Shown here piece after piece: positions 45,237-63,791 of a stretch of DNA of 64,000 nucleotides. Position numbers and translations under genes: made by a program. Position 1 is the stretch's first letter. Each line of letters opens with the position of its first letter. Origin of the DNA: a virus (taxonomy: Duplodnaviria > Caudoviricetes); IMG/VR virus record IMGVR_UViG_3300017766_003100, positions 154,388-218,387 of that record. One strand, given 5' to 3'. The notes under the pieces are model-generated. The model did no database searches. It saw only the letters and a program-made list of their open reading frames with translations, and was not told the DNA's origin.

Positions 45237-46307
45237 ATGAACGTACTGAGTCTTTTTGATGGGATGAGTTGTGGACAAATCGCATTGAATCGTGTTGGGA
45301 TTAAATATGAAAATTATTATGCTTCTGAGGTAGATAAACATAGTATCAAAGTAACCCAACACAACTATCCTAACACGATTCAATTGGGAGATATTACACA
45401 AATAAATGGAAGTGATTTACCAACAATTACATTGATGTGTGGTGGGTCACCCTGTCAAAATCTTTCATTTGCTGGTAAAATGAAAGGGATGTCAACAAAA
45501 GAAGATATTGAAATATTAACATTAGAACAGTATCTTAAATTAAAAGATGAAGGTTTTGAATTTCAAGGACAATCATATTTGTTTTGGGAATATGTAAGGC
45601 TATTAAAAGAAGTTAAACCAAAATATTTTTTATTGGAGAATGTTAAAATGTTAAAAAAATGGGAAACCATAATAAGTAATGTCTTGGGATTAGAACCGAT
45701 TGAAATAAATTCAACCTTGGTTTCAGCCCAAAACAGAAGAAGATTATATTGGACAAACATTCCAAATATTAATCAACCAATTGACAAAGGAATTACTTTA
45801 AAAGATATCATTGTTGATGACTCTTGTAATATGACTATTGATGAAAAAATAGATTCATTAACTAAGTCTTATGGTAACCCTATAACCATTAATGAAGATG
45901 GTATTGTAACACTATATGCGAATAATGGAAAAAGAGTTAATATAGATTTATCCAACGAAGTACCATTTTCATTTTATGAAACTAGAACTAAGGAGGGTAA
46001 AGAAATGAGGAGAAAAATAAGAATTGAAACTGGTAGAGATTCAACTCCAAGGAGTAAAGAATTTAAGATGTATGCACCAAATAAAAATAACAAAGGTAAT
46101 TGTTTAGTAACTGTTGAAAGTCCTTTAGATTTTATTGTTGACTCAACTTGGAAATACAGAAAACTTTACCGAATTGAAATGGAAAGACTACAAACAATAC
46201 CTAATGGATATACTAATGTTGTAAGTGATAGTCAAGCAAGAAAGATGTTAGGTAACGGATGGACAGTTGATGTAATAACACATATATTTAAAAACATAGA
46301 ATTATGA
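45237..46307 (+). CDS. dcm: C5-cytosine DNA methyltransferase
   Basis: SLFDGMSCG, GGSPCQ, LENV, QNRRRLYW, LGNGW. Confidence 0.95.
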   Translation: MNVLSLFDGMSCGQIALNRVGIKYENYYASEVDKHSIKVTQHNYPNTIQLGDITQINGSDLPTITLMCGGSPCQNLSFAGKMKGMSTKEDIEILTLEQYLKLKDEGFEFQGQSYLFWEYVRLLKEVKPKYFLLENVKMLKKWETIISNVLGLEPIEINSTLVSAQNRRRLYWTNIPNINQPIDKGITLKDIIVDDSCNMTIDEKIDSLTKSYGNPITINEDGIVTLYANNGKRVNIDLSNEVPFSFYETRTKEGKEMRRKIRIETGRDSTPRSKEFKMYAPNKNNKGNCLVTVESPLDFIVDSTWKYRKLYRIEMERLQTIPNGYTNVVSDSQARKMLGNGWTVDVITHIFKNIEL

Positions 46308-46666
46308 ATAAGATTTTTTTGATTGATATTGATGGAACAATATGCGAAGATATTAACAATGAAGATTCCCATTTATTTCCATTTGCATTACACTTTGAAG
46401 ATAGTAGATTACTATTAAATAAGTGGTATGATGAAGGAAACATTATAACTTTTTTTACCGCAAGAGAGTCAAAAGATAGACATATTACGGAAGATTGGTT
46501 AAGATTGAAAGGATTCAAATTCCACGGACTAATAATGGATAAACCAAGATGTAAGGATGGTCAAGAATATCATTGGATTGATAATAGACCAGTCAAAGCA
46601 ACAACTTACAAAGGTACTTGGAGTGAATTAATAAAAACAGAAACAAAAATAGAAGTGTTTAAATGA
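46304..46666 (+). CDS. small HAD-family phosphatase
   Basis: DIDGT motif I, FFTAR motif II, IMDKPR, WIDN. Confidence 0.85.
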   Translation: MNKIFLIDIDGTICEDINNEDSHLFPFALHFEDSRLLLNKWYDEGNIITFFTARESKDRHITEDWLRLKGFKFHGLIMDKPRCKDGQEYHWIDNRPVKATTYKGTWSELIKTETKIEVFK

Positions 46667-47496
46667 ATGTATTAAGTTTGTTTGATGGGTTAAGTTGTGG
46701 TCAAATTGCCCTAAATAGAATTGGCATAAAATATGATAAGTATTTTGCATCCGAGATTGATAAAAGTTCAATTAAGGTTACACAACAAAATTATCCCAAC
46801 ACAATTCAATTGGGGGATATAACGGAAATTAAAGGAAGTGATTTACCACCAATCGACCTTCTTATAGGTGGGTCACCTTGCCAAGGATTCTCAAAGGTAG
46901 GGAAACAATTGAATTTCGATGACCCAAGGAGTAAATTATTCTTTGAGTATGTTAGACTATTAAAAGAAACAAATCCAAAGTATTTTTTATTGGAGAATGT
47001 TGTAATGAGAGAAGAATGGAAAGATGTAATCACTGAACATCTTGGTGTGAAACCAATTAAGATTAATAGTAGATTAGTTTCAGCACAAAATAGACCAAGG
47101 TTGTATTGGACAAATATTCCAAATATAACACAACCAAAAGATTTGGGATTAAATATTTGTGATGTTATCACTCCAGACTTTAAGGACAAATATCCAAACT
47201 ATTTAGATTTACCATTCTATGGTAGGGGAACAAGAAAGGATGTTGTTAAGTCATATAGAGACAAGGCATCTTGTTTAACGGCATCAATGTATAAAGGACA
47301 GGTTTCATCTTTTTGTAAAAATGAATTGGGTCAGATATACAAATATACACCACAAGATTGTGAACTATTACAAACAGTACCATTAAATTATACAAGGGGA
47401 GTCTCAAACACCGAAAGGTTTAAATTACTTGGGAATGGATGGACTGTAGATGTGATATCACATATTTTTAAAAATATGAAAGAAGGGTCAAATTAG
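46663..47496 (+). CDS. dcm: C5-cytosine DNA methyltransferase, paralog of 45237
   Basis: SLFDGLSCG, GGSPCQ, LENV, QNRPRLYW, LGNGW. Confidence 0.95.
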   Translation: MNVLSLFDGLSCGQIALNRIGIKYDKYFASEIDKSSIKVTQQNYPNTIQLGDITEIKGSDLPPIDLLIGGSPCQGFSKVGKQLNFDDPRSKLFFEYVRLLKETNPKYFLLENVVMREEWKDVITEHLGVKPIKINSRLVSAQNRPRLYWTNIPNITQPKDLGLNICDVITPDFKDKYPNYLDLPFYGRGTRKDVVKSYRDKASCLTASMYKGQVSSFCKNELGQIYKYTPQDCELLQTVPLNYTRGVSNTERFKLLGNGWTVDVISHIFKNMKEGSN

Positions 47497-47537: not shown

Positions 47538-48461
47538 ATGGAAATCTTAACTGAAAAAGAGTTTAGGACAAAAATCAACATAATTTATCAACAAGAAAGA
47601 ATAAAAATTCTTAATGAAAAATGGGATAGATTATCCAAAGATGACAAGTTGATAATAATTGAAATGTTTAAATTATTAAATCCTAATGTGAAAATTCCAA
47701 TAAACGAAGCTAAATGGTATAACACTGTTTTGGATTGGGCTGGATTAATACCTGGTATTGGTTCGGCGATTGATTTGGTTAATGGATTTGATTATTGGAG
47801 ACAAGGTGATAAATTATATGCTATTTTATCTTGGATTGGAGCATTACCTATTTTTGGTGATTTAATTGCAGCACCAGTTGTTTCTGTTTTAAAACTTGGT
47901 GGGAAAGGAGCTGAATTATTTAAAGGAGCTGTTTTGGCTAAAGATGCCGTTAAGATAGCTGAAGCAGCAAAAAATCTTGGAGGTCCTGTTGCTAAAATGA
48001 TTGAAAAGGCACCATCATGGGGAGTAAAACTAATTGAGGTATTAGAAAAAAGTGTTGGTAAGTTTCCTTGGTTAGGTAAAGGTTTAGTTGAAACTGTAAA
48101 GACATGGGTTGATTTATTTGTAAAAGCAGGTAAAGGTGGTTTAATATTTAAACCATTAGGTAGACAAGCTGTTAGAAAGTTAACAAATAATACAAAATTT
48201 TATTTAGGATTATTAGATTCACTAGGTTTGGGTAATTTTTCTGGACCACCAGAAGAATTAATCAAAAAAGTTCCTGACTTAGCTGATAAAATGGCCGAAT
48301 TTGAATCAACACCCCAAGGACAACAATTAAGTTCTATGGGTAGTGAATTACCAATGAAATCTGAACTACCAACATTTACTCCACCTCAAACATCATCACC
48401 TCTATCATCAATGGTTAAATCAGTTGACCCAATTGACGCTTTGAAATTATTGGTGATGTAA
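47538..48461 (+). CDS. tagged protein with pre-toxin TG-like helical domain
   Basis: VLDWAGLIPGIG.AIDLVNG..YW.QGD...A.LS..GALP..GD. Confidence 0.65.
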   Translation: MEILTEKEFRTKINIIYQQERIKILNEKWDRLSKDDKLIIIEMFKLLNPNVKIPINEAKWYNTVLDWAGLIPGIGSAIDLVNGFDYWRQGDKLYAILSWIGALPIFGDLIAAPVVSVLKLGGKGAELFKGAVLAKDAVKIAEAAKNLGGPVAKMIEKAPSWGVKLIEVLEKSVGKFPWLGKGLVETVKTWVDLFVKAGKGGLIFKPLGRQAVRKLTNNTKFYLGLLDSLGLGNFSGPPEELIKKVPDLADKMAEFESTPQGQQLSSMGSELPMKSELPTFTPPQTSSPLSSMVKSVDPIDALKLLVM

Positions 48462-48504
48462 ATTAAAAATAATTAACCCAACATTTTATATTATAAAAAA
48501 CTCA

Positions 48505-48512
48505 ATATTTAT
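48505..48512 (+). promoter_or_regulatory. putative late promoter
   Basis: ATATTTAT upstream of 48530; supports that start over 48665. Confidence 0.65.
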
Positions 48513-48529
48513 TAATAAAAAAACAATAA

Positions 48530-50035
48530 ATGAAAAAATCACACAAAATGGTCCTGATTGAAAGTGGAATAAGAGATATTAATTCTCTTGCTCTTCGCTA
48601 CAAAAAAGCGAAGGTCTACTTTCATCAGGACCTTTGACTGGATGGAGTTACATCTGCATTAGGAATGAAAAAATACTTGGAAGATAATGGTATCAAAGTA
48701 GTTGATGCTGAAGTCATCCAATATGGTGACCAAGAATGGGCAATAAAGAAACCCGAAGCAAGTGGTGGAGTTATGCCTGTGTTGGTTGACTTTGCTCACG
48801 GAAAACCAATGTTTTTGATTCACACAGACCACCACGATTCACAATCAGGTGTTGAGGGTGATACGTCAACAAGTTTCAAAAGTGCGAGGTCTAATGTTGA
48901 AACAATATCAGGTATATTATCACCAAAAGATTTGTTTCCATCAGGAGATATTAAATTAATTTCAACTGTGGATTCGGCCAACTTTAGGGTTATGGGAATT
49001 TCAATTGATGATGTTAACAATTATATCTTTAATCTTGATAAAGGTTTACCTGTAGAAAAAAATAAAATGTTGATGGGATTAGTTACCAACAAATTATTAT
49101 TAGCATTTAAGAACAAAAAAGGATTTTTAGAAAGATTAGTTTTAGAGTGTGAGCCTTCATTGATTAGTATTCTCAACAAGATAAAACAAATTATGAAAGA
49201 AGAAGGTTGGTCAGGTGTTGAAGATTTACAGATGAATAGGGAGAAGTATATTGAACAGATGAGAGGTTATGGTAAACAATCATATGAAGATGGCATCATT
49301 ATTAAAGATGGTGGTGGAAGTATGATAAAACCTGGTTCATATGATAGATATGTGAGTTTTAAATTATATCCTGATGCTGATTTTCAAGTTATTACTTGGG
49401 GTTCTGTTGGACTTTTACAAGTTTCTTGTAATCCTTTTAAGGAACAACGAGGACTAAAAGGAATTGATTTGGGGGAAATAAATAGAGGCATTCTTGAAGG
49501 AAGAAAGAGTGAATTGGAACAAATTAAAATTACTGCAAATAGATTAAAAAAAGTTGCTGAGACTAGTAAAAAATTCGTACCTGGTGAGAGTGTTGGATTT
49601 ACGGCAAAAGACCTAGTAGCATTTTATGGTAATAGTATAAAAGGGTATAATGAAATACCAAGAAAGTTTGAAAACTTTTTATCAAAGAAATATCCTGATT
49701 ATGAAAGAGGATTAGAAGAATGGAAAAAAATTGTTAGTAAAACAATGAGTAAACCTTATGTTGAATTAAGTGAATTTGAATTGGCTGTATTAGATTCTAT
49801 TTATACAACTGCTTATGATGTAATCAAGAACAATAGTGGCGGACACAAATGTATTACTAATTTCCAAACATCAGCATTAGGTGGTGGTTTTGGTCCTTAC
49901 AAAACAACTGATTTTATTAAAGAAATAAAAGATGAGTTTGTTCAAATTCTAAAAGACAGAATTAATGCCGAGAAAGGGGACAATGTAAACGAAAACTATT
50001 TTAGGGGTATTATTAAAAAAGTAATGAAAGGTTAA
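48530..50035 (+). CDS. DHH-family phosphoesterase with an in-frame TGA at 48635-48637
   Basis: ATG 48530 is in frame with the track ORF at 48665 and reads YFHQDL*LDGVTSALGMK; VLVDFAH, TDHHD (DHH) and TVDSA follow. Confidence 0.8.
48550..48632 (+). promoter_or_regulatory. three-way-junction RNA structure inside the DHH coding region
   Basis: P1 48550-48568 pairs with 48615-48632 (18 bp, 1 bulge); P2 AAGAGA/TCTCTT; P3 CTTCGCT/AGCGAAG. Confidence 0.75.
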
Positions 50036-52306: not shown

Positions 52307-52543
52307 ATGAAAGCAGAAGAAGCTGAAAACTGGAATAATGTTCATTATAGAATGAATCAAGAAGGATTCCACTATTGTTTCAAACACTACTCCTCGTTCA
52401 AAGAAATAGAGGATGAAAAATTCCACGAGTTAAGAAAAAAATACTTGGAAGTCGCCAAAGAATTGGAGGAATATGTCAAAAACAAAGTTAATGAAGCAAA
52501 TTGGGAATTAGAATATGATGATGAAGACGAAGATGAATATTGA
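52307..52543 (+). CDS. hypothetical protein
   Basis: ORF track. Confidence 0.65.
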   Translation: MKAEEAENWNNVHYRMNQEGFHYCFKHYSSFKEIEDEKFHELRKKYLEVAKELEEYVKNKVNEANWELEYDDEDEDEY

Positions 52544-52949
52544 AAATAGAAAAACCAAATTTGAATATACATTCCTTGAAACTTATCAAGCTGGAATTGT
52601 ATTGACAGGAATGGAAGTTAAATCCATCCGTAATGGAAATGCGAATTTAACTGACACTTATTGTTATTTTAAAGACCAAGAATTGTTTGTTAAAAATATT
52701 TCAATATCTTTACCAAATGGAGAACCAAAAAGGGAAAGAAAGTTGTTATTAAAGAAATCTGAGCTTAATAAATTGAAATCAAAACTTATTAATGGTTTAA
52801 CAATTGTCCCAACCAAAATTTATGTTAATGATAGGGGACTGGTTAAAGTTGAAATAGTCTTGGCACAAGGGAACAAACTTCACGATAAAAGAAATTTGAT
52901 TAAAGAAAGAGATATTCAAAGAGAACTTCAAAATAAATCAAAATGGTAA
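52533..52949 (+). CDS. smpB: SsrA-binding protein SmpB (start revised)
   Basis: NRK.KFEY..LETYQAGIVLTG.EVKSIR.G, R.RKLLL.K.E, GLTIVP, KVEI.LA.G.K..DKR. Confidence 0.93.
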   Translation: MNIENRKTKFEYTFLETYQAGIVLTGMEVKSIRNGNANLTDTYCYFKDQELFVKNISISLPNGEPKRERKLLLKKSELNKLKSKLINGLTIVPTKIYVNDRGLVKVEIVLAQGNKLHDKRNLIKERDIQRELQNKSKW

Positions 52950-63678: not shown

Positions 63679-63791
63679 AGTCCTGTGGCGGAATTGGTAG
63701 ACGCACATCGGCAGGTGATTTAGTTTGAGGATACAGCGGCAGTCGAGGTCACAAACATATACAAATACAGGTTCGAATCCTGTCAGGACTA
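63679..63791 (+). tRNA. atypical 113-nt tRNA-Leu-like RNA with non-canonical enlarged central region
   Basis: Acceptor AGTCCTG/CAGGACT, Leu-type D arm GCGGAATTGGTAGACGC, T arm ACAGG-TTCGAAT-CCTGT, discriminator A; 62 nt between D and T arms without a canonical anticodon arm; no encoded CCA. Confidence 0.8.

Follow-up and report, generated by a model that had tools for sequence, protein, structure and literature searches.

A mobile 5′ cassette with a three-way-junction RNA and a predicted stop-hop in phage DHH genes

Efficient translational bypassing has essentially one studied model, gene 60 of phage T4, in which overlapping signals are hard to separate. Pairing of the exiting mRNA was proposed as the forward driver of bypassing in this gene (bioRxiv 10.1101/2024.12.09.627546). 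According to a 2016 review, natural in-frame stop-hopping had no known occurrences, and it had been presumed for a long time that gene 60 has counterparts acting over short distances (PMC5009743). Here, we investigated a three-way-junction RNA and an in-frame stop codon in a DHH/DHHA1-like gene, which lie in a 64,000-nt window of the IMG/VR record IMGVR_UViG_3300017766_003100. All coordinates are positions in this window, which is the whole stretch of DNA that was analysed, and the gene spans 48530 to 50035 on the + strand. The comparisons described below suggested that the gene is read by a programmed stop-hop, that is, by short-range bypassing for which the junction, refolding while the mRNA leaves the ribosome, would supply the driving force. 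We assign this reading a probability of about 0.7.

The layout of the site, CUU UGA CUG, was the same as that of synthetic stop-hops in E. coli, in which a stop has matching codons on both sides and 9 nt give one amino acid. The in-frame layout was also found in relatives, as CUU UGA CUU and CUU UAA CUU. The synthetic hops were low-efficiency events in artificial constructs that had no stimulators (Weiss et al. 1987 and O'Connor et al. 1989, as cited in PMC5009743 and bioRxiv 10.1101/2024.12.09.627546). In contrast, the site studied here is natural and conserved, has frame-changing variants and is accompanied by a dedicated structure.

The junction and the gene that it precedes

The window DNA is phage-like and AT-rich (29% GC) and uses the standard bacterial code. 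The frame opened by the ATG at 48530 met a TGA after 35 codons, continued for 465 more codons in the same frame and ended with the TAA at 50033-50035. The site reads cag gac CTT TGA CTG gat gga, which corresponds to H Q D L stop L D G. The features of the gene were as follows.

48530 to 48637, + strand: ORF1 by translation, the ATG and 35 codons up to the take-off CUU, then the in-frame UGA
48550 to 48632, + strand: three-way junction of 83 nt, proposed 5′ stimulator or driver of the hop (RNAfold and covariance model)
48550 to 48568, + strand: 5′ arm of helix 1, with a bulged U at 48559, pairing with 48615-48632
48570 to 48590, + strand: inner hairpin 1, stem 48570-48576/48584-48590
48592 to 48614, + strand: inner hairpin 2, stem 48592-48599/48607-48614
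48615 to 48632, + strand: 3′ arm of helix 1, encoding V-Y-F-H-Q-D, with the first base of CUU (C) as its last
48632 to 48634, + strand: proposed take-off codon CUU (Leu)
48635 to 48637, + strand: in-frame stop UGA, the proposed occupant of the A site at take-off
48638 to 48640, + strand: proposed landing codon CUG (Leu), directly 5′ of GAY-GGN in all 10 gap types described below
48641 to 50035, + strand: resumed coding, DGVTSAL... to TAA, the body of the DHH/DHHA1-like protein

The junction folded with a minimum free energy (MFE) of −40.7 kcal/mol (RNAfold, 48550-48632). Helix 1 consisted of 9 bp, the bulged U and another 9 bp, with one G-U pair, and the fold was retained in contexts of 131 and 201 nt. 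An earlier note on this DNA, made from the letters alone, had drawn the same helix with two enclosed hairpins, and RNAfold returned this structure. The note had also placed the stem end on the first base of CUU, in agreement with the end of helix 1 at 48632, which is the C of this codon and lies 2 nt 5′ of the UGA. Downstream of the hop site, only a weak hairpin of 5 bp was predicted.

The stability of the junction lay far beyond the shuffled background. In the case of 200 dinucleotide shuffles, the energy was −14.5 ± 2.6 kcal/mol, which gave z = −10.2, and none of the 200 was as stable. In the case of 2000 synonymous resamplings with the codon usage of the window, it was −10.1 ± 3.0 kcal/mol with a best value of −24.4, which gave z = −10.1. 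When only the codons actually used in the junction were permuted, z was −3.4 and the native value was reached by 0.1% of the permutations. The GC-rich codons that the earlier note had described as scarce were indeed rare in the window, with shares of their synonymous sets of 5% for GTC, 1% for CTG, 1% for CGC, 6% for GCG and 9% for CAG.

A search of 48300-48900 against Rfam 15, with E up to 10, gave no relevant family, and the hits at E above 6 were noise. Two other identities of the element were considered and rejected. The 83 nt do not represent an insertion or intron, since they encode the homologous N-terminus codon for codon and their removal breaks the frame. A hammerhead-like reading of CUGAU...GAAA was discarded by eye, since helix 1 takes up all of these bases in pairs.

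By its motifs and predicted fold, the gene product is a distant member of the DHH/DHHA1-type phosphoesterases. In an alignment of 16 sequences, D34-L-D36-G, VDFAHG, TDHHD, DSA and SGGH were invariant, and the D-x-D motif was kept in all 16. Pfam DHH matched each of the 16 members, but with scores below the curated cut-off (best E of 6e-5). The AlphaFold (AF2) model of the stop-free relative L003 had a pLDDT of 70.5. Its best fold matches in PDB were almost all of the DHH/DHHA1 type (PggH, GdpP, RecJ, NrnA and family II pyrophosphatase). The scores of these matches were modest, and a sequence search of PDB with the family profile gave no meaningful match. Since motif I is the D-x-D-G of DHH phosphoesterases, the UGA falls between its two catalytic aspartates. 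Separately, seven homologs (L030, L034, L037, L044, L071, L101 and L126) carried C-terminal extensions and had 691-765 residues, compared to approximately 470.

Stop-bearing relatives and competing readings of the UGA

A scan of IMG/VR gave 396 relatives, of which 80 were retrieved and examined, and the overall comparison set comprised about 70 related genes. Most of the examined relatives, among them L003, which is 97% identical to the window 3′ of the site, read YFHQDLDGVT without a stop. Two homologs from huge phages were likewise stop-free and read FHKDLDGV. Compared to such stop-free homologs (FH(Q/K)DLDG), the window had exactly two extra codons, TGA CTG, and the N-terminus encoded by ORF1 matched that of the stop-free relatives residue for residue.

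Pattern scans of viral and metagenome contigs gave at least 30 stop-bearing genes with distinct 5′ ends from many samples. They shared the pattern CTT, TGA or TAA, 0, 2 or 5 bases, CTN and GAY GGN. Counts out of 30 in this text refer to the matches listed, which fell into 10 gap types with shifts of 6, 8 or 11 nt.

CTT-TGA-CTT: 14 elements, 6-nt shift
CTT-TGA-CTG, the type of the window: 7 elements, 6-nt shift
CTT-TAA-CTT: 1 element, 6-nt shift
CTT-TGACG-CTA and CTT-TGACG-CTG: 1 element each, 8-nt shift
CTT-TGA, 5 bases, then CTT or CTA: 6 elements in 5 types, 11-nt shift

The stop was TGA in 29 elements and TAA in one (L022/L133), so that it does not matter which stop is present, and the base after it was C in 27/30 and G in 3/30. 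The take-off codon was CTT and the landing codon CTN in 30/30. At the same Leu, the 43 stop-free genes used TTG (20), TTA (17), CTT (4) and CTC (2), so that TTR accounted for 37/43, and CTN made up about 22-24% of the Leu codons in these genomes. After the modelled hop, the HQDL-DGVT of every type, including the 8- and 11-nt types, was the HQDLDGVT of the 43 stop-free genes. Since the 8- and 11-nt types change the frame, only a hop from CUU to CUN restores the protein. The frame after landing was open for 436-765 codons in every hop-bearing contig of sufficient length.

These data also bear on readthrough of the stop by a near-cognate or suppressor tRNA, by selenocysteine or by a variant code, which would give D-L-X-L-D-G. 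The window site is in frame, so that readthrough would also result in a full-length protein, and a C directly after UGA makes the stop leaky in E. coli, where it is the weakest context for termination. However, readthrough does not serve the UAA relative or the frame-changing 8- and 11-nt variants, and because of these it was excluded as the common mechanism. The two extra residues would part the aspartates of the D-x-D that is invariant in 16/16 homologs. ARAGORN found no tRNA gene in the window, and the junction lies 5′ of the stop, whereas a bacterial SECIS lies 3′. In addition, TGA otherwise served as an ordinary stop throughout the window, where it terminated 21 of the 87 stop-to-stop frames of at least 100 codons, including several ATGA overlaps. 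The stop at 48635-48637 was the sole in-frame stop splitting a real gene within the window, and a variant code or global recoding of TGA was rejected. Readthrough is thus very unlikely for this site. As a further candidate for all types, −1 frameshifting was rejected, since the 6-nt types need none, the 8- and 11-nt types would gain 3-4 residues in the motif and the CTN would be left unexplained.

A split or dead gene was weighed on the same data. In this case, translation would terminate at the UGA, the downstream part would be made from the ATG at 48665 or by re-initiation, or not at all, and the structure would be unrelated to decoding. This ATG lies 9 codons past the landing codon and starts the ORF that is called under translation table 11. 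In addition, one stop-bearing lineage, the L100 family (L100, L111 and L121), resembles a decaying gene. It kept CTT TGA CTT, the 5′ arm was reduced to its inner half, with an MFE of −8.4 kcal/mol, and a TAA replaced the invariant Ser of R-S-N-V about 250 nt past the hop site, in a frame otherwise open for 434 codons. Judging from these sequences, the family is probably a recent pseudogene, and the lineage looks like gene decay after loss of the stimulator, or like the same events in reverse order. However, a split would cut motif I between its aspartates. The eight codons from landing to ATG 48665 (DGVTSALG) showed only synonymous differences between the window and L005/L007. The downstream ratio of nonsynonymous to synonymous changes (dN/dS) against the window was 0.08 for closer relatives, at dS above 1, and 0.12-0.40 for distant ones, and such low values (0.08-0.4) were found in many stop-bearing lineages. 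A split would also leave the invariant CTT and CTN flanks unexplained. Re-initiation after termination was rejected for the 11-nt types, which have no start codon in the DG frame at the junction. We therefore regard a split or dead gene as improbable.

The junction was as closely tied to the stop as the flanking codons. Among the 30 listed stop-bearing elements, 29 had the same architecture of 15-18 outer pairs and two hairpins, with energies of −28.8 to −40.7 kcal/mol; the L100 family was without the outer stem. In 40 distinct stop-free genes, the homologous 83 nt gave −11.3 ± 4.1 kcal/mol with a best value of −20, and the junction was found in none of them. The two stop-free huge-phage genes had a fold z of about −1.1. 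With a covariance model of helix 1, hop-bearing loci scored 81-102 bits, stop-free genes at most 57 bits and the window site 100 bits. Away from the 5′ end of the DHH gene, the model detected no further copies of the element, either in the window or in related loci totalling 525 kb. The earlier note had claimed selection on RNA structure and a cis-acting recoding role resembling that of gene 60. The split of 29/30 stop-bearing versus 0/40 stop-free genes, together with the fixed spacing, argues for both. Of the two results that the note had named as speaking against the element, stability like that of shuffled sequences and the same structure in stop-free homologs, neither was obtained.

Within the stop-bearing set, the shape was kept while its sequence varied. 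In helix 1, 95% of the cells were paired across 26 relatives. Compensatory double changes occurred at pair 2-82 (GC to AU, 4 sequences) and at pair 8-76 (AU to GC, 10 sequences). The hairpin-1 segment had 16 different sequences among the relatives, yet 29/30 listed elements folded two inner hairpins, and inner hairpin 2 also stayed a hairpin with differing sequences. In several lineages, the protein sequence itself was altered so as to form the inner hairpin. Despite wholly different inner hairpins across lineages, the stem had its 3′ end at base 1 of the take-off codon in 29/29 folded variants.

Two observations concerned the stop-free genes. L069 (2007-2089), with the N-terminus MRVLVESG..., resembled the hop cassette and had the best score of the stop-free set (57 bits). 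A possible explanation is reversion, with the 6 nt already gone and the stem now being lost. L039, L047, L034, L062, L068 and L080 formed a different hairpin of 12 bp within the same 83 nt, with an MFE down to −20 kcal/mol.

Proposed mechanism and its weighing

In the proposed stop-hop, the ribosome would decode the 35 codons and hold peptidyl-tRNA-Leu on CUU in the P site with UGA in the A site. The peptidyl-tRNA would release CUU, the mRNA would slide by 6 nt, and the same tRNA would re-pair with the CUG at 48638-48640. Decoding would restart at GAU and give ...YFHQDLDGVTSAL..., with the D-x-D-G motif intact as in the stop-free relatives. At take-off, the inner hairpins and the 5′ arm would already be outside the ribosome, and the 18-nt 3′ arm would still be within it, between the P site and the exit. 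Zipping of helix 1 at the mRNA exit would pull the message in the 5′ direction and bias movement forward. In relatives, the same device would carry the ribosome over 8 or 11 nt. A hop predicts one Leu in the junction peptide ...YFHQDLDGVTSALGMK, and readthrough predicts L-X-L.

The folding energy of the emerged RNA was calculated along this path. When the boundary of the exit was set 12-14 nt 5′ of the P site, it was about −17 to −21 kcal/mol. It was −26.6 kcal/mol after 6 nt of sliding and −33 to −37 kcal/mol after 11 nt. The predicted gain is about 6-9 kcal/mol for 6 nt and 13-18 kcal/mol for 11 nt. Once decoding is stalled by the stop in the A site and the codon-anticodon pairs have opened, forward sliding would therefore be downhill over approximately the observed range of 6-11 nt. 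This energy ladder matches the proposal that pairing of the exiting mRNA drives bypassing in gene 60. That the hop occurs, how efficient it is, that pulling drives it and which tRNA-Leu carries it out are inferred from these comparisons.

The hop might be real with a junction that is not its stimulator. The structure would then act in mRNA stability, in initiation control 20 nt past the start codon, in attenuation or in a DNA-level role in transfer. Synthetic constructs without stimulators show low-level stop-hops, and the 5′ stem-loop is not kept in relatives of gene 60. In a consensus scan, inner hairpin 2 and the U-rich tract after it were weakly terminator-like. The structure and the hop site also move as one patch, so that their association could be linkage. 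On the other side, the stem end is fixed on the take-off codon in all folded variants although their hairpins differ, the sole lineage without the outer stem also has a nonsense codon, and the energy ladder fits the observed range of shifts. Hence a junction without a stimulating role seems unlikely.

The hopping tRNA would plausibly be a tRNA-Leu with a UAG anticodon, which reads all CUN codons, and the 96%-complete hop-bearing genome G002 (318 kb) encodes tRNA-Leu(UAG). The genes for it in G002 (L258 210-286 and L263 2841-2917) are 77 nt long, which is short for a Leu tRNA, and lie within tRNA clusters.

The earlier note had proposed the single-stranded UUUGACUG as a possible toehold for a tRNA-like guide. 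Such a trans-acting tRNA-Leu-like RNA, encoded at 63679-63791, would pair with UUUGACUG and guide recoding. By eye, there was an 11-base complementarity with one bulge between the middle part of this RNA and the hop site. In E. coli, expanded-anticodon tRNAs raise hopping, according to work cited in bioRxiv 10.1101/2024.12.09.627546. However, the hop site differs among relatives, with UGA or UAA and with 3, 5 or 8 bases between the codons. G002 had no antisense match to its own site except for one hit with 3 mismatches, which was at the level of the reversed-pattern control. In addition, the same acceptor, D and T arms occurred in the stop-free phage G006, and the middle parts were unrelated. 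The toehold was therefore not upheld, and a guide of this kind is extremely unlikely. As an observation in its own right, this family of tRNA-Leu-like RNAs was present in the window (63679-63791, + strand), in G006 and in G002, with members at L257 1310-1532 and L258 1115-1532. Its members have good acceptor, D and T arms and no anticodon arm that ARAGORN could call.

The distribution of the hop state was patchy. When the hop state was placed on a protein-body tree of 65 rows, it required at least 8 changes, of which 7 were forced by well-supported branches. The window was sister to the stop-free L003, L059 was sister to the stop-free L035, and L022 was nested in a stop-free clade. Compared to L135 and L099, the window had an identity of 87-97% over the approximately 120 nt that lead up to the take-off codon. 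Upstream, the identity was about 40%, and at more than about 300 nt downstream it was mostly 40-60%. The cassette was an island of about 140 nt with 95-97% identity, common to divergent genes. From these comparisons, the gene start, the junction and the hop site appear to move as one unit between divergent DHH genes. Sequence comparison gave one further feature at its edge.

48505 to 48523, + strand: AT-rich box in the shared cassette, at its 5′ edge, a possible promoter element

The box was present in the hop-bearing L005, L008 and L099 and absent from the stop-free L003, and the island of identity to L135 and L099 started at approximately this position. For a promoter, the consensus scan gave nothing above chance.

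Several points weigh against the stop-hop reading. The support for the hop is wholly comparative. Since the cassette is transferred, the 30 sequences are not 30 independent trials; the independent cassette lineages are perhaps roughly 5-7, and the high identity of the cassette could reflect recent transfer and not selection. The two compensated pairs were the only ones in helix 1 with double changes, and the number of covarying pairs was not significant compared to shuffle controls. Coding constrains the 3′ arm through YFHQD and some of the 5′ arm through E-S-G. Because the 3′ arm encodes the conserved YFHQD, much of helix 1 is unable to vary and controls based on pair counts are weak. The gap of 3-8 nt is too short for a take-off stem-loop in the style of gene 60. 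No nascent-peptide signal was singled out, and the 35-residue chain with its RYKKAK patch was similar in stop-free homologs. The hop could also be inefficient. In two metatranscriptomes, RNA contigs were identical to 48300-48542 and 48692-48995, and none bridged the site. The DNA contigs of one run broke at 48613/48617, probably because of the inverted repeat. In the case of the DNA run X8 from a different study, 48529-48643 was bridged with substitutions and no indel.

The genes neighbouring the hop-bearing gene encode two C5 methylases, a 307-aa ORF without a family, DUF192, NUDIX and DUF6011. The C5 cytosine DNA methyltransferase genes, at 45237-46307 and 46663-47496 (+ strand), flank a 120-aa ORF and are partly alike in their DNA. 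This region was strongly mosaic among relatives. A phage SmpB (PF01668, E 5e-46), the partner of tmRNA in the rescue of stalled ribosomes, is encoded at 52515-52949 (+ strand), 2.5 kb downstream of the hop-bearing gene.

Comparison with known bypassing systems

A literature search found no description of a hop in a DHH gene. On the sequence comparisons above, the system would be a new form of programmed translational bypassing and a rare natural case. In a broader picture, which we consider fairly probable, the mobile 5′ cassette of freshwater jumbo-phage DHH genes would be the first natural family of stop-hops, in-frame and out-of-frame, in which re-zipping of the junction drags the message by 6, 8 or 11 nt. 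It would also be a second, independently evolved bypass system of phages, possibly gated by phage tRNA-Leu(UAG).

If true, this would provide a minimal natural system in which the gap is short, a take-off stem-loop is absent and a single 5′ structure dominates at a fixed spacing. The approximately 10 gap variants and several hairpin variants would serve as ready-made mutants that isolate the exiting-mRNA driver from the other signals of gene 60, and pairing of the exiting mRNA as a driver of sliding would become directly testable. The case also concerns annotation. Gene callers split or truncate such genes, and similar Leu-stop-Leu or frame-breaking sites may pass as pseudogenes in phage metagenomes.

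Among other described systems, the candidate bypass at UUA in a Streptomyces phage terminase also has a short gap, a phage gene and a slow codon at the take-off site. In contrast, its codon is a rare sense codon, the proposed role is regulatory and a three-way junction was not described (PMC10732093; PMC5009743). The byps of Magnusiomyces capitatus mitochondria are alike in that short inserts in coding sequence are skipped and behave as mobile DNA. However, they involve an unused A-site codon, relaxed mitochondrial decoding and codons that are often imperfectly matched. They occupy 81 sites in many genes with no flanking mRNA context, whereas here one site in one gene has a fixed 5′ structure. 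Upstream 5′ hairpins that refold attenuate −1 and enhance +1 frameshifting. They resemble the junction in that the ribosome is pushed forward when a structure folds again where the mRNA leaves it, and differ in that the shifts are of a single nucleotide between overlapping codons.

T4 gene 60 is alike in that the stop lies directly 3′ of the take-off codon, in a conserved region of a phage gene, within a cassette that is mosaic among close relatives. In their patchy distribution, the cassettes resemble the mobile gene 60 element, and it may be asked what such cassettes gain. There are 3-8 nt between the codons here and 47 in gene 60 (a 50-nt gap), and the short gap has no room for a stem-loop at the take-off and A site. 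The codons are Leu CUU/CUN compared to Gly GGA, and the gene encodes a DHH phosphoesterase compared to a topoisomerase. The gene 60 cassette moves between topoisomerase genes, much as the cassette here appears to move between DHH genes. No homing endonuclease gene adjoins the hop-bearing gene in the window. Compared to the weak 5′ stem-loop of gene 60, which its relatives do not keep, the junction is a far stronger 5′ structure and is strictly conserved. No sequence homology to the gene 60/MobA cassette was found; the gene and codons differ, and there was no Rfam match. By analogy, these results suggested that the system in the window works like gene 60 without being a member of its cassette family.

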